A stretch of DNA of 58,590 nucleotides from contig JBBIOM010000005.1 of assembly GCA_037443365.1 (NCBI GenBank), positions 5,760 through 64,349 of the forward strand, given 5' to 3'. This document shows positions 8,811-39,073 of the stretch, piece after piece. How positions within the stretch are numbered: position 1 is the stretch's first letter; every line of letters begins with the position of its first letter. Under the pieces are notes generated by a model that had not been told where the DNA came from, did no database searches, and saw nothing but the letters and a program-made list of their open reading frames with translations. This stretch comes from Armatimonadota bacterium (GTDB lineage: Bacteria > Sysuimicrobiota > Sysuimicrobiia > Sysuimicrobiales > Humicultoraceae). Both the position numbers and the translations under genes were made by a program.

Positions 8811-9675
8811 GGCGTCCTCCGCCGCCGGGCCGCGCATCGGCACCGGCTGGCGGTGGTGGACGCGCCGATTCCTGCGCAACCGCGTCGCGCCGATAGGGTT
8901 CACCATCGTCTTCGCCGGCGTCCTGATCGCGGCCCTCGCGCCTGCGATCGTGCCCCATGACATCAGGGTGATGTCTCCCCAGGACGCTCTCTCCCCGCCA
9001 GGAGGTCGCTACCTGTTCGGCACGGACGAGTTTGGGCGCGACGTGTTCAGCCGCGTGCTGGTGGGATCGCGCATTTCCCTGGTTGTGGCCTTCCTCTCTG
9101 TGCTCGTGGCCGTGGCGCTGGGAACCTCGCTCGGCCTGGCCGCGGGGTACTACGGCGGGTGGTGGGACTCGGTCTCGATGCGGGTCATGGACGTCATCTT
9201 CGCCTTCCCGGCGATACTGCTTGCGATCGCGATAATGGCGGTGCTGGGCACGAGTCTATTCAACCTGGTGATCGCCATCGGGATCGTGTACACGCCCCAG
9301 TTCGCGCGCGTCGCCCGCGCAGCGGCGTTGAGCGTGCGCTCGTTGGAGTTCGTTGACGCCGCCAGGGCGCTGGGGATGGGCAACGCCCGCATCATCGCCA
9401 GGCACCTCATCCCCAACGTGCTGGCCCCATTGATCGTGCAGATCTCGCTGAGCCTTTCGCTGGCGATCCTCTCCGAGTCGGCGCTCAGCTTCCTGGGTCT
9501 TGGCACCCAACCCCCCACGCCCTCGTGGGGCAACATGCTGAGCGACGGCCGGCAGCTGCTTGAACTGGCGCCCTGGAACGCCGTCTTCCCGGGCCTGGCG
9601 ATCATGGTCGTTGTGCTTGGCTTCAACCTGCTGGGCGATGGCCTGCGCGACCTGCTCGATCCGAGGCTGCGATGA
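8776..9675 (+). CDS. ABC transporter permease (OppC/DppC type); start uncertain
   Basis: FGTDEFGRDVFSR, EFVDAARALG, ESALSFLGLG..PP.PSWG and GDGLRDLLDPR motifs. Confidence 0.92.
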   Translation: MPGSTRAFATGRASSAAGPRIGTGWRWWTRRFLRNRVAPIGFTIVFAGVLIAALAPAIVPHDIRVMSPQDALSPPGGRYLFGTDEFGRDVFSRVLVGSRISLVVAFLSVLVAVALGTSLGLAAGYYGGWWDSVSMRVMDVIFAFPAILLAIAIMAVLGTSLFNLVIAIGIVYTPQFARVARAAALSVRSLEFVDAARALGMGNARIIARHLIPNVLAPLIVQISLSLSLAILSESALSFLGLGTQPPTPSWGNMLSDGRQLLELAPWNAVFPGLAIMVVVLGFNLLGDGLRDLLDPRLR

Positions 9676-10883
9676 GAGCCCTCCCGATTCGCGCTGTGGG
9701 ACCGGGGTGCGCCGCGGCAGGGAGCACGGTCGCAAGACTGCGTGAGGCCGTGCGCTCGCGCGTTGCAGCCGGGCTGCGCGAAGGGGTCTTTCCGGGCGCG
9801 GTCGTCGCCGTCGTGAGGGGGAGGACCCTGCTGCTGCTCGAGGCGTTCGGCGATGCGCAGGTCGTGCCCCGACGGCGGGCGATGCTGGTGGAAACCGTGT
9901 TCGACCTGGCCAGCCTCACCAAGCCCCTGGCCACGGCGACCGCCGTGCTCCAGCTCTGGGAGCGAGGCGTCGTGGATCTCGACGCCCCGGTGGCGCGGTA
10001 CTTCCCGCGCTTCGCGCAGGGGGGAAAGGCAGGGGCAACGGTGCGGCAGCTGCTGGCGCACACCTCGGGCCTGCCTGCCTGGGAGATGCTCTACCTGCCC
10101 CGCCCAGGCAGGGGAGCCCCGAGCCGGGGGGGCGCCTGCCGTTCAATCCGCGGGGCAGTGGAACGTATCTGCTCCACACGCGCCGTGTCACAGCCGGGGG
10201 CGCGCGTGGAGTATAGCGATCTGGGGTTTGTCGTGCTGGGGCATCTCGTGGAGCGCCTGACCGGGATGCCTCTTAGCGCCTACACACGCGAGCACATCTT
10301 CGCGCCGCTCGGGCTCGGCACGATGCGGTTTGCGCCCCCGCGCTCGTGGGGGATGCGCTGCGCCCCCACCGAGGTCGGGAACGCCTTCGAGCGGGCGAAG
10401 GCGCACGAGCTTGGGCTGGGGCGCGCCTTCACCTGGCGAACGTACCTGCTTCGAGGCGAGGTGCACGACGGCAACGCCTGGCATCTGGGGCGCGGGGTGG
10501 CGGGTCACGCCGGGCTGTTCGCCTCCGCCCGGGACGTCGCACGGCTCGGCGCGGCGATGCTGGGTGGCGGAGAGATCGGTGGCGTGCGCGTCCTGCGCTG
10601 TGCGACGGTTGCCGAGGCCACGAGCGATCAGACGCGTTCGCCGGGTGCGGGGCGCAGGGGATTGGGGTGGAGCCTGCATGGCGCACCGTCGGCCGGCACG
10701 CGTGCCTCGGCGAGGGCATACTGCCACACCGGCTTCACCGGCACCTCCCTGCTCGTGGATCCGGAACGCGACATGATCGTGGTGCTGCTCACGAACCGTG
10801 TGCATCCCGCCGCGGGACGTGAGGAGATCCAGGCCTTCCGGCCGGCGTTCCACGACGCCGTGATCGAGGCCCTCGGGGGGTGA
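9672..10883 (+). CDS. Serine hydrolase, beta-lactamase/AmpC fold (AmiE-like muropeptide amidase candidate)
   Basis: FDLASLTK (SxxK), LLAHTSGL, YSD, VHDGNA, GHAGLF and HTGFTGT; lies in the mur operon. Confidence 0.85.
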   Translation: MRALPIRAVGPGCAAAGSTVARLREAVRSRVAAGLREGVFPGAVVAVVRGRTLLLLEAFGDAQVVPRRRAMLVETVFDLASLTKPLATATAVLQLWERGVVDLDAPVARYFPRFAQGGKAGATVRQLLAHTSGLPAWEMLYLPRPGRGAPSRGGACRSIRGAVERICSTRAVSQPGARVEYSDLGFVVLGHLVERLTGMPLSAYTREHIFAPLGLGTMRFAPPRSWGMRCAPTEVGNAFERAKAHELGLGRAFTWRTYLLRGEVHDGNAWHLGRGVAGHAGLFASARDVARLGAAMLGGGEIGGVRVLRCATVAEATSDQTRSPGAGRRGLGWSLHGAPSAGTRASARAYCHTGFTGTSLLVDPERDMIVVLLTNRVHPAAGREEIQAFRPAFHDAVIEALGG

Positions 10884-30834: not shown

Positions 30835-31968
30835 ATTACCATCTCAACGCACGAGACCGCGTTCGGCGGCCTCGTATTGCGCCCGGAGACCGTCCGGGCG
30901 ATAACCCGTCTCGGGTGGACCGAACCCACCCCGATTCAATCGAAGGTGATCCCCGCGCTCCTGGCAGGCCACGACGTCGCCGGCCAGGCGCAGACCGGAT
31001 CCGGCAAGACCGGCGCCTACGTCATTCCCATGCTCGAGCGCCTCGACCGCAATGCGCGAGGGATCCAATCGCTCGTGCTCTCACCCACCCGCGAGCTGGC
31101 CCTGCAGATCGCGGATGCGGTGCGCGCGCTGGGTGGACCCAAGATCCGCGTCACGGCGCTCTACGGCGGGCAGCCCATTGAGCGGCAGCTCGCCGCGCTG
31201 CGAGCCGGCGTGCAGGTGGCCGTGGCCACGCCAGGCCGCCTGCTCGATCACATCTCCCGGGGTTCGGTGAAGCTCGACGGCGTTCGGTTCCTGGTTCTAG
31301 ATGAGGCCGACCGGATGCTGGACATGGGCTTTCTGCCCGATGTGGAGGACATAATCCGGCTCACCCCGGCAGCGCGCCAGACCGCGCTGTTCTCGGCCAC
31401 GCTCCCAGACGCGGTGTCCACGATCGCGGCGCGGCACATGCGCAATCCATCGTGGATCAGGATCGCCGCGGCGGTGCCGACCGTCCAGACCGTGACGCAG
31501 TACTACCTGGAAGTGGCCGAACAGGACAAGGTGCGGGCGCTCCGGCTGCTGCTGACCAGCGGCGAGGTGCCCTCTGCCCTCGTCTTCCGGCGCACGCGCC
31601 GGGGAGCCGATCGGCTGGCCAAGATCCTGCGCGAGCGGGGTCAGCCGGTCGAGGTGATCCACGGTGATATGACCCAGGGCGCCCGGCTGCGCGCGCTGAC
31701 GGCCTTCGCCAAGGGAAGGGCCCAGGTGCTGGTGGCCACCAACGTCGCGGCCCGCGGGCTCGACCTTCCCGATATCTCGCACGTGGTCAACTTCGACATG
31801 CCCGAGGACGTGGACACCTACATCCACAGAGTCGGCCGCACAGCCCGGGCCGGACGCACCGGCGAGGCGATTACCTTCGTGGGCCAGCACGACGTGGAGG
31901 CGTTCGACCTGCTGCGGCGTCGGATCGGTTCGGCGCTGCAGCCCCACCCGCTGCCGCTGTACCGGTAA
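30835..31968 (+). CDS. DEAD-box RNA helicase, probable ATT start
   Basis: Q motif (PTPIQ), AQTGSGKT, PTRELA, TPGRL, DEAD, SAT, ARGLD and HRVGRTAR; AGGAGGT 7 nt before in-frame ATT. Confidence 0.93.
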   Translation: MTISTHETAFGGLVLRPETVRAITRLGWTEPTPIQSKVIPALLAGHDVAGQAQTGSGKTGAYVIPMLERLDRNARGIQSLVLSPTRELALQIADAVRALGGPKIRVTALYGGQPIERQLAALRAGVQVAVATPGRLLDHISRGSVKLDGVRFLVLDEADRMLDMGFLPDVEDIIRLTPAARQTALFSATLPDAVSTIAARHMRNPSWIRIAAAVPTVQTVTQYYLEVAEQDKVRALRLLLTSGEVPSALVFRRTRRGADRLAKILRERGQPVEVIHGDMTQGARLRALTAFAKGRAQVLVATNVAARGLDLPDISHVVNFDMPEDVDTYIHRVGRTARAGRTGEAITFVGQHDVEAFDLLRRRIGSALQPHPLPLYR

Positions 31969-31988
31969 GAGCCTCCCCGCCCGAACGC

Positions 31989-32024
31989 AGGGACTGGTTT
32001 GGTCTATCCGGCCAACCAGTCCCT
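31989..32024. terminator. Hairpin downstream of the helicase gene (possible terminator)
   Basis: AGGGACTGGTT/AACCAGTCCCT 11-bp inverted repeat; no U-tract. Confidence 0.45.
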
Positions 32025-32121
32025 CACCGGCACCCCGAGCGCTCCCGCGAGTCGTTCCAGGGTATCGAGGCTGGGAACATGTCGCCGGCCGTCAGATTGG
32101 AGTTATCCTGGGCCTCGCCAT
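32004..32121 (-). pseudogene. Remnant of an XRE/Cro-family HTH regulator
   Basis: Minus strand reads MARPRI / NL.AG / RHVPSLDTLERLAGALGVPVRDWLAG* across frameshifts, matching the C-terminal half of HTH_3 domains. Confidence 0.6.
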
Positions 32122-32142
32122 TTCGCGCCGGGCGTCCGGGCG

Positions 32143-32151
32143 TGGTATGCT
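32143..32151 (+). promoter_or_regulatory. Extended -10; probable leaderless transcript for the DUF47-wHTH gene
   Basis: TGgTATGCT ends 8 nt before ATG 32160; no Shine-Dalgarno sequence. Confidence 0.55.
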
Positions 32152-32159
32152 CGGTGCGT

Positions 32160-33110
32160 ATGGCTGATCCTTCGCTGCCTGCCGCGGTGCCCTCGCCGCG
32201 CGCCACACCGGTTCAGCGCGAGAGGGAATTCGAGCTACTCGAGGAGATGACGCGCGCCATCCTCGAGGCAGCCGAGGTGCTCACCGGGGCCCTGGAGAGC
32301 CGCACGCCCGCGGGTCAGGCCTGGCAGGCGATCCGAGATCTCGAGCACAAGGGCGATGCGATTGCGCGCGATCTCTTCGAATTCCTCTCATCCCCCGGCG
32401 TCCCCGCCGGCGATCGCGACGCTCTGCAGGGTCTGACCGGACTCCTCGACGACGTGCTCGACGCCATCGAGGCCGCGGCCGCGCGGCTGGCGATCCACCG
32501 TATCCGCCGGGCGATCCCCCCGGCACGCGAGATGGGGCAGATCATGCTCCGGTTGGCGCAGGAACTCAGGCAAGCGATTCGCGAGGTACGCCACGGGCGA
32601 GAGGTCTTCCCCCACACGCGCACGTTGCATCGCTTGGAGAACCAGGGCGACGACGTGCTGCGGGACGCCCTCGAGACCTTGTTCTCGGGCCGGTACAGCG
32701 CCAGGGACATCATCAAGTGGAAAGACATCTGCGAGATGCTTGAGACCGGCACCGACCGCTGCGAGGATATCGCCAACGTCTTGGAGACGCTAATCGTTCG
32801 TCCAGGCGTGGAGCAGAAGCTTGCAGCCGGCCGTCTGTCCATTGACACGGACCGCCACGAGGCCACCGTGGCCGGCAAGCCCATTCCCCTCACCGCGAAG
32901 GAGTTCGGTCTCCTGCACCTTCTGGTTCGCCATCAAGGCAAGGTGGTTCGTCGCGAGCGGCTCCTGCGCGAGGTTTGGGGCGAGGACTACTTCGGCAACT
33001 CGCGTACCCTCGATACGCACATTGGCTGGCTACGCAAGAAGGTCGAGCCCTACGCTGGACTGCGGTTGGTGGTCGTGCGGGGCATCGGATACCGCCTGGA
33101 CCTAAAGTAG
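32160..33110 (+). CDS. DUF47 (PhoU-like) domain fused to an OmpR/PhoB-type winged-helix DNA-binding domain
   Basis: DUF47: IRDLEHKGD, LDDVLDAIE, LENQGD, IIKWKDI.E.LE..TDRCED.AN; wHTH: LTAKEF.LL..L....GKVV.RE.LL..VWG, RTLDTHI..LRKK, VRGIGY. Confidence 0.88.
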   Translation: MADPSLPAAVPSPRATPVQREREFELLEEMTRAILEAAEVLTGALESRTPAGQAWQAIRDLEHKGDAIARDLFEFLSSPGVPAGDRDALQGLTGLLDDVLDAIEAAAARLAIHRIRRAIPPAREMGQIMLRLAQELRQAIREVRHGREVFPHTRTLHRLENQGDDVLRDALETLFSGRYSARDIIKWKDICEMLETGTDRCEDIANVLETLIVRPGVEQKLAAGRLSIDTDRHEATVAGKPIPLTAKEFGLLHLLVRHQGKVVRRERLLREVWGEDYFGNSRTLDTHIGWLRKKVEPYAGLRLVVVRGIGYRLDLK

Positions 33111-33111
33111 G

Positions 33112-33162
33112 TTTTTCCCAGGTTTGACATAGGGTTTACCCGGCCTTGGCCTATCTATCACC
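33112..33162 (+). promoter_or_regulatory. PHO-box-like array of 11-nt-period direct repeats upstream of pstS
   Basis: TTTTCC(33113), TTGACA(33124), TTTACC(33135), TTGGCC(33146), ATCACC(33157) at exact 11-nt spacing; TATGGT -10 candidate at 33172. Confidence 0.65.
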
Positions 33163-33214
33163 CCCCGAGTCTATGGTTGGGGGGGAATGGACTGCAGCCA
33201 AAGGAGGCCAGGCA

Positions 33215-34273
33215 GTGCTCAAGCCGTTATCCTGTCTTCTTAGTCTTGCTCTAGGCATCGCGGTGGTATTGGGCGCGGCAGGGACCACGCCCGCGCAGCA
33301 ACCGGTGACGCTCAACGGCGCGGGCGCCACGTTTCCGTTCCCGCTCTACTCTAAGTGGTCGCAGGTGTACCACGCCGAGCGAGGGGTCCAGATCAACTAT
33401 CAGTCTATCGGCTCGGGAGGCGGCATCCGGCAGTTCATGGCCAAGACGGTGGATTTCGGCGCCACCGACGGGCCGATGACCGGTGAGCTGATCCGGCAGG
33501 CCGGCGGCAGGGTCCTGCACATCCCGATGGTGGCGGGCGCGGTTGTGCCAGTGTACAACGTTCCCGGCGTGGGCCCCGGCCTGAACTTCACCCCCGATGT
33601 CCTGGCGGACATCTTTCTCGGCAAGATCACGAAGTGGAACGATCCGCGGATTGCCGCCGTCAACACCGCAGCGAAGCTGCCGTCCGCCGACATCATCGTC
33701 GTCCGCCGCTCGGACGGCTCGGGGACCACGGCCATCTGGGTTAACTACCTAAGCAAGGTGAGCGCCGAGTGGAAAGCGAAGGTCGGCGAGGGAACCTCGG
33801 TCAACTGGCCGGTCGGACTGGGCGGCAAGGGCAACGAGGGCGTCACTGGGCTCGTCAGGCAGATGCCCAACTCGCTGGGCTACGTGGAGCTGGCCTACGC
33901 GCTCACGAACCAGATGACCTTCGGCAACGTGCGAAACAGGGCTGGGCAGTTCATCCGACCATCGCTATCGAGCACCACGAGGGCCGTGGAAGGCGCGCTT
34001 CGGTCTATCCCTGAAGACTACCGCATGTTCTTCACGAATCCCGAGGGCCGGGACGCTTACCCCATCGCGGGTTTCACCTGGATCCTGATCTACGGCGACC
34101 AGCCCGATCCTGCCAAGGGCAGGGCGCTGGTTGAGTTCCTGTGGTGGGCCACGCACGAGGGCCAGAAGTATGCGCCGACGCTGCTGTACGCAACGCTGCC
34201 CAAGAGCCTGGTGCAGCGCGTCGAGGGAACCTTGAAGACCGTGACCTCACAGGGGAAGGCCGTCATGCCCTAA
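33215..34273 (+). CDS. pstS: Phosphate ABC transporter substrate-binding protein
   Basis: GAGATFP.PLY.KW, YQSIGSGGG, DFGATD, RSDGSGTT, GKGNEGV and YPI..FT; AAGGAGG RBS. Confidence 0.96.
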   Translation: MLKPLSCLLSLALGIAVVLGAAGTTPAQQPVTLNGAGATFPFPLYSKWSQVYHAERGVQINYQSIGSGGGIRQFMAKTVDFGATDGPMTGELIRQAGGRVLHIPMVAGAVVPVYNVPGVGPGLNFTPDVLADIFLGKITKWNDPRIAAVNTAAKLPSADIIVVRRSDGSGTTAIWVNYLSKVSAEWKAKVGEGTSVNWPVGLGGKGNEGVTGLVRQMPNSLGYVELAYALTNQMTFGNVRNRAGQFIRPSLSSTTRAVEGALRSIPEDYRMFFTNPEGRDAYPIAGFTWILIYGDQPDPAKGRALVEFLWWATHEGQKYAPTLLYATLPKSLVQRVEGTLKTVTSQGKAVMP

Positions 34274-35214
34274 TGAGCACGTCGCCGCGCGCCGCCTCAG
34301 GGGCGGGCGACCTCCTCTTCCAGCGGCTGCTGGCCGCCGCCGCGGGCAGCGTGCTGGTTATTGTGGGCGCCATGCTACTCGCGCTTACCGTCTCTGCCTG
34401 GCCGGCGATCCGGCGGTTTGGCCTGGCGTTCTTCGCCACATCAACATGGGATCCGGTGGCCGGCCAGTTCGGCGCCCTCCCCTTTGTTTACGGGACGGTC
34501 GTGTCATCGATCATCGCACTGGCGCTGGCCATTCCGCTGGGGCTGGGCGTAGCCATCTTCCTGTCGGAACTCACCCCGCGTGGGCTCCGGGCACCCATAG
34601 GCTTCCTGGTCGAACTGCTGGCGGCCATCCCCAGTGTGGTTTACGGCCTGTGGGGTATCTTCGTGCTGGTCCCCTGGGTGCGCGCTTCGCTGGCGCCGTC
34701 GCTCAAGGCGTTGTTCGGATTCCTCCCCTTGTTTGAGGGACCGCCGCTGGGGGTGGGGATGCTGACCGCTGGCCTGATCCTGGCCATCATGGTTGTGCCG
34801 TTCATCGTCGCGGTGAGCACCGCGGTCATGCGTGCCGTGCCGCAGTCCCAGCGGGAGGCCGCGCTCTCGCTCGGGGCCACCACCTGGGAAACCACCCGAA
34901 CCGCCGTGCTCCCCTACGCCCGATCCGGCATCATGGGCGCGGTCTTCCTGGCCCTGGCCCGGGCCCTCGGCGAGACGATGGCGGTGACCATGTTGATCGG
35001 CAATGTCCCCCAGATCAAGGCGTCGCTGTTCGCGCCCGCCTACACCATCGCAGCGGTGATCGCCAACGAGTTCGCCGAGGCCACGGAAGACCTGTACCTG
35101 GCCGCCCTGATCTACGCGGGACTCGTCCTCTTCCTGGTCACGGTCGTCGTCAATGTCCTCGCCCGCATCCTCGTCGCCCGGGCGGCAAAGGGCCCGAGCC
35201 TGATCAGGGAGTGA
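34273..35214 (+). CDS. pstC: Phosphate ABC transporter permease PstC
   Basis: WDP....FG, ELLAAIPSVVYGLWG, RALGETMAV and IANEF.EA. Confidence 0.95.
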   Translation: MSTSPRAASGAGDLLFQRLLAAAAGSVLVIVGAMLLALTVSAWPAIRRFGLAFFATSTWDPVAGQFGALPFVYGTVVSSIIALALAIPLGLGVAIFLSELTPRGLRAPIGFLVELLAAIPSVVYGLWGIFVLVPWVRASLAPSLKALFGFLPLFEGPPLGVGMLTAGLILAIMVVPFIVAVSTAVMRAVPQSQREAALSLGATTWETTRTAVLPYARSGIMGAVFLALARALGETMAVTMLIGNVPQIKASLFAPAYTIAAVIANEFAEATEDLYLAALIYAGLVLFLVTVVVNVLARILVARAAKGPSLIRE

Positions 35215-36065
35215 TGGGGATGGACCTGAGCTACGTACGGCGCAGGTGGACCAACCGGGCCATGGCTGTCCTAACATTCCTTTGCACCGTCGTCGTGCTG
35301 GCACCCCTGTTCTTCATCCTGTTCTTCCTGGCGCGCACCGGGCTTTCCGCCCTCAATCTGGATTTCTTCACCCACCTGCCGGGGCCGGCCGGTGAGCCCG
35401 GCGGCGGCATGGCCAATGCCATCGTGGGAACGCTGGTGCTGGTCGGGCTGGCAGCACTGCTCGGTGTGCCGGTCGGCGTGCTGGGCGGCATGTTCCTGGC
35501 AGAGTTCCCCGGCAGCCGGCTGGGCCACGCGGTCCGGCTGTTCGCTGACGTGATGAACGGGATGCCGAGCATCGTGATGGGTTTGTTCGCGTACACGCTC
35601 CTGGTGCTGCCACTCCGGCACTTCAGCGCGCTCGCCGGCGGGGTCGCCCTGGGCGTTATGCTGATTCCGACGGTGATGCGCACCACCGAGGAGATCGTCC
35701 GACTCGTGCCCCAGAGCCTCCGAGAGGCGTCGCTGGCGCTGGGTATCCCTCAGTGGAAGACGCTGCTTTGGATCGTCCTGCCCGCGGCGGCGGCCGGCAT
35801 CGTGACTGGAGTCATGGTGGGGCTCGCCCGCATCGCGGGAGAGACGGCGCCGTTGTTGTTCACGGCGTTCGGCAACCGCTTCTGGAACTGGGACCTGCTG
35901 CAGCCGATTGCCGCCCTGCCGCTGCAGATTTTCGCCTACGCCATCTCCCCGTTCGATGACTGGCACCGCCAGGCGTGGGCTGGCGCGCTTGTGCTGGTGG
36001 CGATAGTGTTGGCCATCAACGTCGCGGCGCGCTACTTCGCGGGCCGGCAGGCCAGGCTGCGTTGA
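35211..36065 (+). CDS. pstA: Phosphate ABC transporter permease PstA
   Basis: [25 protein letters not shown] and [10 protein letters not shown]. Confidence 0.95.
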
Positions 36066-36844
36066 TGCCCGCCGCGCTCATTGACCACGCCGCCGGGATC
36101 GAAACCCAGGACCTGCACGCCTGGTTTGATCGGCTCCATGTGCTGCGCGGCATCACACTGAGGGCGGCCCCGCGGAGGGTGACGGCCATCATTGGGCCAT
36201 CCGGCTGCGGCAAATCCACCTTCCTGCGCTGCCTCAACCGGATGCACGAACTCGTCCTGGGCTCAAGGTCGAGCGGCCGCGTGTTGTTGGACAGCCAGGA
36301 CATCTACGCGCCGGCGGTGGACCCCGTGTTGATCCGCCGTCGCGTGGGCATGGTGTTCCAGAAACCCAATCCGTTTCCCACCATGAGCATCTATGACAAT
36401 GTGGCCGCGGGGCTGCGGCTGGCAGGCGAACGGGATCGCCGGAGGCTGGACGAGACCGTTGAACGCAGCCTGCGCGCGGCCGCGCTGTGGGATGAGGTGA
36501 AGGACCGGCTAGCCAAGTCCGGCACCAGCCTGTCGGGGGGGCAGCAGCAACGCCTGTGCATCGCCCGGGCCCTAGCGGTCTCACCGGAGGTGCTGCTGAT
36601 GGACGAGCCGGCCTCCGCGCTCGACCCTTCCGCGACATTGAAGATTGAGGAGCTGGCGCGCGAGCTGGCCGCGCAGATCACCATCGTGATAGTGACCCAC
36701 AACATGCAGGAGGCGGCCCGGGTCTCCGACTTCACAGGGTTCTTCCTCAGCGGTGAGATGGTGGAGTACGGCGCCACCGACCAGATCTTCACCAGGCCCC
36801 GGGACCGCCGCACCGAAGACTACATCACCGGCAGGTTCGGGTAG
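36065..36844 (+). CDS. pstB: Phosphate ABC transporter ATPase
   Basis: [41 protein letters not shown] and YITGRFG. Confidence 0.97.
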
Positions 36845-36853
36845 GAGGCGGCC

Positions 36854-37510
36854 GTGACGCGGGAACTCTTTCTCAGGGAGCTGAACGCCCTCCAGGGCGA
36901 CGCCGTGCGCATGGCCGGGATGGCCGGGGATGCTATTCACGCGGCGGTGGAGGCGCTCAAAGAACGCGACAGCGCCCTCGCGGACCGGATCATTGAAGAG
37001 GACGACAGGATCGACGCGCTGCACCTGGAACTCGAGGAACGGTGCATGCGCCTGCTAGCCAGGCAGCAGCCGATGGCATCGGATCTGCGGACGATCGCGG
37101 CGGTTCTTGCCATCACCATCGACCTGGAGCGCATGGCTGATCACGCCGAGGGGATTTCGAAGTGCGCGAAACGGCTGGCTGACCAGCCGTTGCTCAAGCC
37201 CTTGATTGACATCCCGCGGATGGAGATCCTGGTCGGGGAGATGCTGCGCGACGCGATGGACGCGTTCCTCCGTCGCGATGCCGTACTCGCCGAGGCGATG
37301 GCGAAGAAGGACGACGAGGTGGACGCGCTGCGCAGCCAGGTGTTCCGCGAGCTGCTGACGTACATGATGAGCGATCCGCGGTCCATCCCCAGGGCCCTGG
37401 AACTGCTGCTGGTGGCGCAGCACCTCGAACGGGCGGCCGATCACATCACCAACATCGGCGAGCGCGTCATCTACATGGTGACCGGCGAACTGCGGGAATT
37501 GAACGTCTAG
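36854..37510 (+). CDS. phoU: Phosphate signalling/uptake regulator PhoU
   Basis: QQP.ASDLR, DLER.ADHA and LER.ADH.TNI.E; AGGAGG RBS. Confidence 0.96.
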   Translation: MTRELFLRELNALQGDAVRMAGMAGDAIHAAVEALKERDSALADRIIEEDDRIDALHLELEERCMRLLARQQPMASDLRTIAAVLAITIDLERMADHAEGISKCAKRLADQPLLKPLIDIPRMEILVGEMLRDAMDAFLRRDAVLAEAMAKKDDEVDALRSQVFRELLTYMMSDPRSIPRALELLLVAQHLERAADHITNIGERVIYMVTGELRELNV

Positions 37511-37535
37511 AGACCGAATCACAACGGAGCGTGCG

Positions 37536-37736
37536 ATGCCCACTGTCCTATTCGTCTGAGCCCACAACACCGCCCGCTCGCAGGTAGCGGAGGGGCTGTT
37601 CAACGCCCTGGCGCCGGCGGGCTGGCGGGCTCGGTCCGCGGGAACGGACCCCCAGGGTACGGTGCGCGAGGAAGCCTGCCCAGTCCTCCCCGTGGTACGC
37701 AGCCTCATCCACGACCTGGGAGGAGAACCAGCATGA
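37536..37736 (+). pseudogene. arsC: Internally shortened thioredoxin-type arsenate reductase/LMW-PTP ORF with in-frame TGA at the catalytic Cys (candidate Sec); pseudogene or mini-protein
   Basis: MPTVLFV*AHNTARSQVAEGLFNALAPAGWRARSAGTDP...EEACPVLPVVRSLIHDL; GGAG RBS; not in the ORF track. Confidence 0.75.
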
Positions 37737-38175
37737 GCGATCGCCGGTCCGATGTGGTTGCCTACGCGGCGGGCTGCGCCTGGACCGCGTCCTCTACTCA
37801 CCGCTTCACTACCCGGCTGACTACGGGTTCATCGTGGACACCCTGGCGAACGACGGGGACCACCTCGATGTCCTCATCTTTACCTATGAACCGACCTTCC
37901 CGGGCTGCCTCGTGGAGGTCCGTCCCGTCGGCGTGCTGGACATGCACGACGAGAAGGGGCACGACCAGAAGATCCTGGCCGTGCCAGTCGGCGACCCGCG
38001 CTTCCAGGGCGTGACCGATCTGGGGCACCTGCCCCCGCACTTCCTCAAGGAGGTGGAGCACTTCTTCGCGGTCTACAAGACGCTTGAGCAGAAGCCGGTG
38101 GAGATCCACGGCTGGGCCGGGGCAGAGGAAGCGCGCCGGTTGATCAGCGAGGCCCGGCGCTCGCTGCCGTCCTGA
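37733..38175 (+). pseudogene. ppa: Family I inorganic pyrophosphatase, frameshifted by an N-terminal deletion
   Basis: LRLDRVLYSP.HYP.DYGFI..TL..DGDHLDV, M.DEKG.D.KI and FF..YK.LE in a different frame from ATG 37733; the EIP.GS..KYE segment is missing. Confidence 0.8.
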
Positions 38176-39073
38176 GGTAGCGCATCAGCCCCAGGGCGTT
38201 CAGCCGCGAGGACATGATGATCTCCCTCCGCTCCGCGGCGCCCGGCCCGTCCGCGGCAGCCGCGCTGGCACCCGCTTCGCGCAACCGCTCCACGATCGTG
38301 TCTTCCGCGCATCCGGCTTCCAGCCCTGAGCGCACCATCTCCACGCCCGCCGCGAGACGCTCCTCTGCCTGGACGAGCAACTCGTCGCACCAGGTGTGCG
38401 GGCCGAAGTGCGTGAGCAGCATGCGCTCCGGCCGCAGGGCGCGCAGGCGCTCGAGCGTCGCGATCCAGGTTGGCACGTCTAGCTCGGGCGGAGGGGTCGG
38501 AGGCAGGACATAGCGCGATCCCGGCAGGCATATGCCTGCCGCGTCCCCGGTGAAGAGGTCGCCGGAGGACTCGTCCAGCAGCACCAGGTGATGCCGGGCG
38601 TGCCCGGGCGTATCGAGGGATCGCAGCCGACGCGACCCCAACCGGATCTGCGCCCCGTCCTGCAGCAGCCGCACCCGGTCCGCCGGAACCGGCTCGGGCT
38701 CGCCCAGCAGCGCGTCGAGGTCTCCACCGTAGAGCCGGCGGGCGCTCGCGATCAGGCGCGAGGGGTCTGCCAGGTGCGGCGCGCCCGCCGGGTGCACCCA
38801 CACTTCGAGATGGGGGAAGCGCCGCACGAGCGCGCCTGCCGCCCCTGCATGGTCCAGGTGGATGTGCGTGACCGCGACCGCCCGCAGATCCTGCGGGTCG
38901 CACCCGGCCGCGTGCACGCCCTCCAGCATCACCTCGACGGTCGAGGCCGGCCCGGTCTCGATCAGGGCCGGGTACTCACCCGGCAGCAAGTAGACGCCGA
39001 TCGCCGCGGGAGTGCGGCAGTAGCCGGTATCAATGAGCACCAGGTCATCGTCGAGGCGTTCAATGCCAGGCAT
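38144..39073 (-). CDS. MBL-fold metallo-hydrolase
   Basis: THIHLDHAG, TPGHA.HH, FTGD and THFG motifs. Confidence 0.9.
   Translation of the reverse strand: MPGIERLDDDLVLIDTGYCRTPAAIGVYLLPGEYPALIETGPASTVEVMLEGVHAAGCDPQDLRAVAVTHIHLDHAGAAGALVRRFPHLEVWVHPAGAPHLADPSRLIASARRLYGGDLDALLGEPEPVPADRVRLLQDGAQIRLGSRRLRSLDTPGHARHHLVLLDESSGDLFTGDAAGICLPGSRYVLPPTPPPELDVPTWIATLERLRALRPERMLLTHFGPHTWCDELLVQAEERLAAGVEMVRSGLEAGCAEDTIVERLREAGASAAAADGPGAAERREIIMSSRLNALGLMRYLRTAASAGPR

Follow-up and report, generated by a model that had tools for sequence, protein, structure and literature searches.

A DUF47 domain joined to a PhoB-type DNA-binding domain at the head of a pst operon, a candidate kinase-independent phosphate regulator

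The 58,590-nt stretch of DNA analysed here (the window, whose coordinates are used throughout) belongs to contig C5 of the genome designated G000 and contains, directly upstream of a pstSCAB-phoU operon, a gene whose protein joins a PhoU-like DUF47 domain to an OmpR/PhoB-type winged helix. We consider it probable, with appreciable doubt, that this fusion protein is a kinase-independent activator of phosphate genes in which a PhoU/PitR-like domain has replaced the receiver as input. The proposal builds on the architecture of the protein and its conservation, on its linkage to pst genes, on phased repeats of characteristic geometry in front of pstS, and on an exchange of position with a DUF47-phoP-phoR cluster in related genera. 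Both domains and the promoter type are already known, and the domain pair is already visible in databases. The literature searched, supplementary gene tables not being covered, contains no paper that describes or tests a DUF47 plus OmpR/PhoB fusion; an earlier note on this DNA, hereafter the original prediction, had likewise named no characterised bacterial protein of this architecture, which stands within the searchable papers.

The fusion protein and its family

The open frame at 32079..33110 on the + strand is unbroken and, from the ATG at 32160, encodes 316 amino acids (aa). Its parts, with the evidence for each, are as follows; pLDDT is the predicted local distance difference test.

32160..33110, + strand: fusion gene, DUF47/PhoU_div plus OmpR/PhoB winged helix, 316 aa (open reading frame (ORF), Pfam, AlphaFold2)
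32208..32798, + strand: DUF47 (PhoU_div) domain, residues 17-213, six helices (Pfam, model helices 17-212, Foldseek)
32799..32816, + strand: linker, the fusion point, residues 214-219 (pLDDT <50 at residues 214-217)
32817..33107, + strand: full OmpR/PhoB effector domain, residues 220-316, with N-terminal beta sheet, three helices and wing (Pfam, PhoB model, AlphaFold2, Foldseek)

Pfam calls, considered at E<=0.01, place PhoU_div/DUF47 (PF01865) at residues 23-213, with 56.6 bits against a gathering cut-off of 24.4 and coverage of profile positions 13-213 of 214, and Trans_reg_C (PF00486) at residues 239-313, with 89.1 bits against a cut-off of 26.2. No further domain was found at this threshold; in particular, the receiver model Response_reg and the PhoU model PF01895 gave zero matches. 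For the C-terminal part the best curated NCBI model is PhoB (TIGR02154), which aligns at 72.9 bits over model positions 128-226, that is, over the entire effector domain including the N-terminal sheet; the score does not reach the PhoB equivalog cut-off of 296.2 bits. Among proteins of solved structure, the DNA-binding part is closest in sequence to RegX3, the phosphate-starvation regulator of M. tuberculosis (73.7 bits); PhoB scores 61 bits.

An AlphaFold2 model built from 61 family members (mean pLDDT 87.4, predicted template modelling score (pTM) 0.71) has six helices across residues 17-212, low confidence at 214-217 and a winged helix at 220-315. Foldseek aligns the N-terminal part with 3l39, a PhoU-like DUF47 protein, at a template modelling (TM) score of 0.85 and a root-mean-square deviation of 2.2 over 201 columns. 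The C-terminal part aligns at TM 0.8-0.88 with the effector domains of PhoB, PhoP, YycF, RegX3 and similar proteins, and GlnR and a streptococcal redox sensor are also among its structural neighbours. Frame, Pfam and alignment thus bear out the claims of the original prediction that one intact ORF carries a full DUF47 domain with both ExxxD motifs followed by an OmpR/PhoB domain, and that the receiver is missing. With a putative input and a DNA-binding domain in one polypeptide and no phosphotransfer domains in the Pfam calls or the model, the architecture is that of a one-component regulator.

Both domains are strongly constrained, with a mean column identity of 70% in an alignment of 61 fusion proteins. 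The two ExxxD motifs (E62..D66 and E160..D164) are invariant in these proteins and in the 28 stand-alone DUF47 proteins of an extended alignment, as are all six acidic residues E62, D66, D97, D101, E160 and D164. Within the fusion family the invariant set comprises E62, H63, K64, D66, D97, D98, D101, E104, E160, N161, D164 and K186 through N206 in the DUF47 part, and R282, T283, L284, D285, T286, H287, W290, L291, R292 and K294 in the DNA-binding part, where the recognition helix RTLDTHxxWLRxK is unchanged across the family. The stand-alone DUF47 proteins end where the DUF47 part of the fusion ends, their C-terminus aligning at fusion residues ~206-215, and all alike are 30-37% identical to it.

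OmpR/PhoB winged helices that work without phosphotransfer occur in ToxR/CadC-type membrane regulators, in SARP/AfsR/EmbR and in the orphan regulators GlnR and RitR. The ToxR/CadC and SARP/AfsR/EmbR proteins carry the winged helix N-terminally with a membrane or BTAD part, and GlnR and RitR keep a receiver-like fold; the fusion differs from all of these in carrying the winged helix C-terminally, like a response regulator, with a PhoU-like bundle as its partner. PhoB, PhoP and RegX3, which work with PhoR or SenX3, are closer to it in their winged-helix effector domain, pst target operon and promoter layout. Unlike them, the fusion lacks the receiver and its phospho-acceptor aspartate, having DUF47 there instead, has no adjoining kinase gene, and falls short of the PhoB cut-off by the scores given above. 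PhoU (PF01895) has a related helical-bundle fold with ExxxD motifs but no DNA-binding domain; the fusion escapes the PhoU model, and a true phoU lies in the same operon. PitR and other stand-alone DUF47 proteins belong to the same family as the fusion, with the same fold and acidic residues, and the signalling role that we propose for the fusion has a parallel in PitR (PMC13170248). Those proteins are ~205 aa long and partner Pit transporters, whereas the fusion has 316 aa, is joined to a DNA-binding domain and lies beside pst rather than pit; in addition, the stand-alone loop motif TF(V/I)TPxDRED and N-terminal PRE..FF are replaced in the fusion.

A word-index protein search returned 417 matches at E<=0.001. 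Domain content was checked for the best 120 of these, the window's own protein not counted, and both Pfam domains were present in every one; at least 120 database proteins thus have the fusion architecture, with 63-84% identity to the window's protein. Their sources name them merely 'DUF47 family protein' or similar, and identity within the family is at least 59%. A full HMMER pass over the representatives of 1.84 billion clusters (50% identity) recovered one full-length representative (P0122, 320 aa, 66%) together with fragments, followed by stand-alone DUF47 proteins of ~205 aa (28-40%) or by regulators with a match to the DNA-binding part; when ten matches of odd length were checked by Pfam, the DUF47 and Trans_reg_C pair occurred in P0122 alone. 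Because this pass yielded a single full-length representative and otherwise one-domain proteins, the fusion is one tight family. A different combination appears in the database protein P0139 (451 aa), in which two PhoU repeats (PF01895) and then a PhoU_div domain stand in one chain.

A pattern scan of species representatives located 28 fusion loci, all in metagenome-assembled genomes labelled Armatimonadota, 'bacterium', Bacillota (2), ANGP1, Candidatus Fervidifonticultor, Thermofontivivens or Calidihabitans. Because PMC11604079 lists Fervidifonticultor and Calidihabitans as members of the phylum CSP1-3/Sysuimicrobiota, the fusion family belongs there, as most likely does the window's genome. 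The accessible main texts of papers on this phylum, PMC11604079 included, contain none of the terms 'PhoU', 'pst', 'pstS', 'PhoR' or 'two-component', supplementary gene tables not being covered. In a survey of 94 species genomes of the phylum (numbered with a G; f and g denote families and genera, and L extracted loci), the fusion, counted at E<=1e-60, is present in 50, and fragments cut by contig ends occur in two more. By family it is found in 22/34 genomes of f1, 15/22 of f3, 12/23 of f4 and 1/1 of f6, and in 0/12 of f5, 0/1 of f2 and 0/1 of f7. Two of the 94 genomes are unpublished, the fusion holder G025 and the non-holder G017; excluding both, the count is 49/92.

This distribution answers the doubt that the fusion might be a single-genome oddity, an assembly chimera or a decaying deletion pseudogene. 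The frame is intact in 50/94 genomes, with partial copies at contig ends only, and both domains are highly conserved. Contigs from two other runs of the same study span the domain junction without a gap, X2 record 1 covering 32082-33300 and X3 record 4 covering 32000-33143, with 15-16 base changes across the whole fusion gene and no gap inside it. Nothing was found in favour of an artefact; the one nearby region that appears degraded, 37511-37840, lies outside the gene. Because of the at least 120 homologues, the 50/94 genomes and the junction-spanning contigs, we take the fusion to be no assembly artefact; we regard an artefact or decaying gene as refuted and vanishingly improbable.

The pst operon, its repeat array and linked genes

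The region around the fusion gene contains the following features.

33110..33161, + strand: five direct repeats at 11-bp spacing, with cores at 33112, 33123 (TTTGAC), 33134 (GTTTAC), 33145 (CTTGGC) and 33156 (TATCAC) (sequence, matrix)
33172..33177, + strand: -10-like hexamer TATGGT, 10 nt after the last repeat core, without a usable -35
33200..34273, + strand: pstS, from GTG at 33215 to 34273 (TIGR00975, 389 bits), with Shine-Dalgarno sequence AAAGGAGG at 33200-33207
34273..36844, + strand: pstC (34273-35214), pstA (35211-36065) and pstB (36065-36844) (ORFs, Pfam)
36854..37510, + strand: phoU, with two PhoU domains (TIGR02135, 226 bits; PF01895, 158 bits)
32143..32151, + strand: extended -10-like element TGGTATGCT, 8 nt 5' of the ATG at 32160
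31990..32023, + strand: inverted repeat with 10-bp arms and a 14-nt loop, just 3' of a DEAD-box helicase gene (read from the sequence)

The fusion gene indeed stands directly 5' of a complete pstSCAB-phoU operon, as originally noted. Between its stop codon and pstS lie direct repeats with the consensus core CTT(C/G)AC at 11-bp spacing, an arrangement found with 4-6 units across 14 loci including the window. A weight matrix was made from 56 units of 12 loci, excluding the window and its near twin L042, and both strands of the 2.2-Mb genome were scanned for four phased units. The three top-scoring arrays are at C21:22648 (31.8), the window's pstS promoter (29.8) and C62:181 (17.8); the reversed genome, used as a control, gave one match, at 16.5. 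Arrays also precede pst genes in loci outside the matrix (L021, L022, L035, L038, L045 and L046).

A TAnnnT hexamer follows the last core at exactly 10 nt in 11 of the 14 loci and at 22 nt in the other 3, and none of these promoters has a -35-like hexamer at a usable spacing. Consistent with a Pho-box type of promoter, tandem repeats one helical turn apart take the place of the -35 5' of pstS. Repeats that reach to 10 nt before the -10 are the layout of PhoB- and PhoP-dependent promoters, at the position of the E. coli Pho box. Because there is no usable -35, the promoters look activator-dependent, and their geometry argues for an activator. A simple sigma-70 scan reported zero sites in 31800-38300. 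Insofar as a phased array and a -10-like hexamer are present, the pstS promoter that had been placed at 33105-33180 is confirmed, with a proposed transcript start at ~33184. A look-up of RNA runs for 31900-34300 listed none covering it. In the pstS leader, the G run at 33179 is one G shorter in all four other runs.

The other two leading arrays each stand in front of a gene for a small secreted protein. These proteins (L080, C21:22648-23263, and L081, C62:181-801) are paralogues of 162 and 166 aa, without a Pfam or NCBIfam match, and may belong to one regulon with pstS. G038 (C13; L100 1203) also has a high-scoring array (35.7), made up of CTTAAC, CTTAAT and CTTCAC units and located ~6 kb 5' of an unrelated regulator gene.

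The fusion gene appears to have a promoter of its own. Because a TGnTAnnnT element lies 8 nt 5' of the ATG at 32160 and no Shine-Dalgarno sequence precedes this ATG, a leaderless mRNA is suggested; TGGTATGCT at 32143-32151 is the likely promoter, with a proposed start at 32160. A TAnnnT element stands 8-11 nt 5' of the fusion start codon in 16/23 loci. Upstream of the window's fusion gene no repeat array is present (best score -9.9), but G001 and G047 have one at this position, which suggests regulated feedback there. Further upstream, the inverted repeat at 31990-32023 is a likely transcript end separating the helicase from the fusion gene; it went unlisted by a simple terminator scan because it has no T run. 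The X2 contig has 1401 extra letters between 32081 and 32082, that is, between this hairpin and the fusion promoter.

Linkage to pst genes extends well beyond the window. Among the 28 related loci, pst genes follow the fusion on the same strand in 13 (as complete pstSCAB-phoU where the contig reaches), the fusion is divergent from pstS in 1, and phoU lies immediately 3' in 6 and 5' in 2; in the remaining 6 no pst gene adjoins the fusion, although in 2 of these pst genes follow 2-4 kb further downstream. Across the phylum, 27 genomes encode a PstS with 75% or more identity to that of the window, and all 27 carry the fusion (G049 as a contig-cut fragment only), and in 26 of the 27 the two genes share a contig within ~1.1 kb. 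With five genomes of genus g26, in which a PstS 50-55% identical stands beside the fusion, the pst-linked total is 31 genomes. Fusion and pst module are gained or lost as one unit.

In two non-pst loci, L077 of genome G069 (9225-9798) and L026 (7909-8525), the gene after the fusion has an MGS-like domain and is probably a methylglyoxal synthase; between the two genes lie a three-unit CTTCAC-type array and a TAnnnT hexamer. Methylglyoxal synthase frees inorganic phosphate (Pi) from dihydroxyacetone phosphate. In G069, where an ABC transporter follows the fusion and MGS-like genes, phosphonate uptake was considered and is not claimed, the binding protein scoring 31.5 bits on PhnS against a cut-off of 395.

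Several further DUF47-related and neighbouring genes were seen. At L027 150-716 and L032 2360-2917, a second DUF47-like gene in divergent orientation lies just 5' of the fusion; it has 34% identity to the fusion's DUF47 part. The window's genome has a separate pair of stand-alone DUF47 and PiT genes on contig C3 (L017), and at L018 1561-2304 (the C3:88826 region of G000) an N-terminal DUF47 half is in frame with a PiT-like membrane part, which points to a fusion of DUF47 with the transporter or to a frameshift. Downstream of phoU and ahead of the pyrophosphatase gene, a short frame at 37536-37730 resembles the first half of a low-molecular-weight (LMW) phosphatase/ArsC-type protein, with a TGA at the presumed position of the active-site cysteine. 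The pyrophosphatase ORF (37834-38175) covers Pfam positions 43-150 of 153 only, and the region 37511-38175 looks degraded or frameshifted.

Two-component partners in relatives and the origin of the fusion

None of the nine HisKA matches of the window's genome is on contig C5, and this contig has no match to the PhoR model, in agreement with the original prediction that no sensor kinase lies nearby. One of the nine kinases has a PAS domain; it adjoins a REC-PAS protein rather than an OmpR-type regulator.

Related genera of family f4 have a different arrangement at pst. In G059 (genus g21), a stand-alone DUF47 gene, an OmpR-type phoP, phoR, pstSCAB and phoU follow one another on one strand, and PhoR is a 465-aa protein with PAS, HisKA and HATPase domains. 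Full-length orthologues of this PhoR (61-83% identity; E<=1e-60, the threshold of the kinase searches across the phylum) occur in 14 genomes, all of f4: 6/6 in g21, 5/7 in g23 and one each in g22, g24 and g25. The kinase gene and pstS are no more than 6.5 kb apart in 12 of these genomes, and a stand-alone DUF47 gene stands just 5' of phoP-phoR on the same strand in at least six (G057, G059, G060, G061, G071 and G072). The genera g21 (6/6), g22, g24 and g25 lack the fusion and have the PAS-type PhoR beside pst; in genus g26, which belongs to the same family, the fusion adjoins pstS and the G059-type PhoR has no orthologue. With DUF47 at the place of the receiver, the slot in sister genera held by DUF47-phoP-phoR, and the end of the DUF47 part matching the stand-alone proteins, the original claim that a PhoU-fold module has replaced the receiver can be kept as one that fits.

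In one genome the two systems can be compared directly. G069 has PhoPR inside its pst operon and the fusion elsewhere, 5' of the MGS-like gene and ABC transporter described above; its repeats are of a TTAA(C/T) type near PhoPR and pst, as in G059, and of the CTTCAC type after the fusion gene. The distinct repeat types are matched by differing recognition helices, RTVDVHVRWLR in the pst-linked regulators versus RTLDTHIGWLR in the fusion, a pattern that fits two regulators with related but distinct sites.

A second PAS-kinase/regulator pair, here called tier 2, is 38-47% identical to the G059 type and occurs in most genomes of the phylum. Neither PhoR-like kinase type was matched in any of the eight genomes of the window's genus. 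The regulators of the window's genome are at best 55-56% identical to the tier-2 regulator of G001, for which seven orthologues from five families reach 67-79%. Tier 2 was rejected as part of the fusion regulon: a weak four-unit GTTCAC array (13.7) precedes it in G001 only, and none was found in 6 other loci or in 3 further f5 loci of the same clade (best three-unit scores <=9.0). The regulators closest in identity to the DNA-binding domain of the fusion (G047a, G014a and G038a; 48-50%) were rejected as a PhoP candidate by context only, having their own kinase and no pst genes nearby.

The DNA-binding domains of the fusions form a single clade (100/100) in a tree of 39 domains, which supports a single origin. 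A scenario that fits is descent from a DUF47-phoP-phoR cluster through loss of receiver and kinase. The narrower claim that the DNA-binding domain descends from the pst-linked PhoP was dropped, and such descent is kept as a scenario only, because the deep nodes of the tree are weak (40/71).

Proposed mechanism, alternatives and significance

In the mechanism that we propose, the fusion protein would be made as a leaderless mRNA product from its own extended -10 promoter, which in the window is free of repeats. Its C-terminal winged helix would bind the 11-bp-spaced CTT(C/G)AC repeats as tandem copies, these repeats standing in for a -35 box ahead of pstSCAB-phoU, and the bound protein would turn on transcription when phosphate is scarce. 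The N-terminal DUF47 domain, at the position that the receiver has in PhoB, would act as input, permitting the DNA-binding domains to bind or pair solely in the low-phosphate state; because DUF47 itself would gate the output, no histidine kinase would be required. The same type of array precedes a few other genes, namely the two small secreted proteins here and the MGS-like gene in some relatives. Binding of the repeats, activation rather than repression and independence from a kinase are what we infer from the sequence comparisons.

A precedent for DUF47 feeding phosphate status to a PhoP-type output exists because PitR, a stand-alone PhoU_div protein of S. aureus, controls PhoPR activation, being its dominant accessory regulator according to PMC13170248. 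That study covered single-domain PhoU_div proteins only, and 'fusion', 'fused' and 'DNA-binding' occur zero times in the text available (PMC13170248). Given PitR, an accessory domain wired directly to the output domain would be the most economical reading. If the fusion is such an activator, there is a roughly even chance that DUF47 responds to cytoplasmic Pi or metal-Pi bound by its conserved acidic residues; a signal on the state of Pst, relayed by PstB or PhoU, is a serious though somewhat lesser candidate, and some other input has a small chance. A complex prediction of PhoU with the DUF47 part of the fusion (residues 17-216) gave a score of 0.01 and a mark of 0.32, which counts neither for nor against such a contact. 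The fullest form of the proposal is that DUF47 itself senses cytoplasmic Pi or metal-Pi at the invariant acidic site and directly gates the PhoB-type domain, as a first kinase-free Pho switch that arose once in CSP1-3/Sysuimicrobiota through collapse of DUF47-phoP-phoR; this we put forward tentatively, as a possibility well short of probable.

Several observations weigh against a kinase-independent activator. The window's genome carries five full OmpR-type regulator/kinase pairs, by best model one KdpE, one copper/heavy-metal type and three MtrA/PhoB-like, none above any curated cut-off; the regulators on contigs C11 and C23 score 234.5 and 220.2 bits on the PhoB model, nearly equal to their best model. 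Because of these five pairs, two of them near-best on PhoB, a canonical regulator could bind the repeats instead. The fusion is also not a strict replacement, because four genomes of g23 (G064, G066, G067 and G069) hold both it and a pst-linked PhoPR, and most fusion-bearing genomes outside the window's genus retain the tier-2 pair. Four of the eight genomes in the window's genus (completeness 96, 95, 91 and 85%) have neither the fusion nor this pstS, and the module is therefore dispensable. The repeat phases behind the weight matrix were picked by eye, and in the tree the fusion clade sits on a long stem (0.95) above the weak deep nodes. The term 'kinase-free' in the original prediction accordingly needs narrowing: in the window's genome no orthologue of either PhoR type occurs, but five OmpR-type pairs do, and the idea, put up there for checking, that genomes with the fusion lack phoR/phoB is borne out as regards PhoR-like kinases in the window's genus but not in most other genomes, which keep the PAS pair, nor in the four with PhoPR.

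These points are taken up by an alternative in which a canonical response regulator (of the C11 or C23 pair, or of the PAS-kinase pair in relatives) activates at the repeats and the fusion is a phosphorylation-independent competitor or repressor, sitting on these repeats in phosphate-replete cells and exerting PhoU/PitR-type negative control from the DNA. The five OmpR-type pairs and the four genomes with PhoPR plus the fusion would accommodate it, the repeats overlap the -35 region and so suit a repressor as well, and in the bacteria studied Pho signalling is under negative control by PhoU and PitR (PMC13170248). Against this, promoters without a usable -35 look activator-dependent, the repeats near PhoPR and near the fusion in G069 differ in core, the window's genus has retained the array without either PhoR type, and the best score upstream of the C11 operon (15.6) is under the control maximum of 16.5; on balance we find such a competitor unlikely. 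Alternatively, DUF47 may be a mere pairing scaffold and the fusion a constitutive activator or architectural factor at the pst promoter, while phosphate control would lie elsewhere, for instance in the action of PhoU on the transporter. It is established that OmpR-family domains must pair to bind tandem repeats, and the fusion gene has its own repeat-free promoter in the window, both of which would suit a scaffold. The acidic site of the DUF47 family is nevertheless invariant in 61/61 fusion proteins, which weakens this alternative because a mere scaffold is not expected to keep it, and the array before the fusion gene in G001 and G047 suggests regulated feedback; we therefore hold a pure scaffold to be distinctly improbable.

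If the fusion is the kinase-independent activator that we favour, it would bear on a wider question. In the classical route the Pst transporter signals by way of PhoU to the kinase PhoR, which in turn acts on PhoB. To our knowledge, the sensing of phosphate sufficiency in bacteria is unsettled, and the signal that PhoU-family domains detect is not known. The fusion family presents a PhoU-like domain and a PhoB-type output in one chain, with a candidate operator adjoining its gene and a three-gene version in related genera; it is a natural 'Rosetta stone' linking DUF47 proteins with PhoP-type regulators, and an example of a two-component pathway apparently cut down to one component. For an uncultivated phylum common in hot springs, the subsurface and deep soil, it also yields a predicted motif of the phosphate regulon. 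One protein and one predicted 60-bp operator make a minimal system in which to test for the ligand or partner of a PhoU-fold domain. The family is of real interest because, should DUF47 prove to be a direct sensor, this one-protein system may make the long-sought signal of the PhoU family directly measurable in a test tube.

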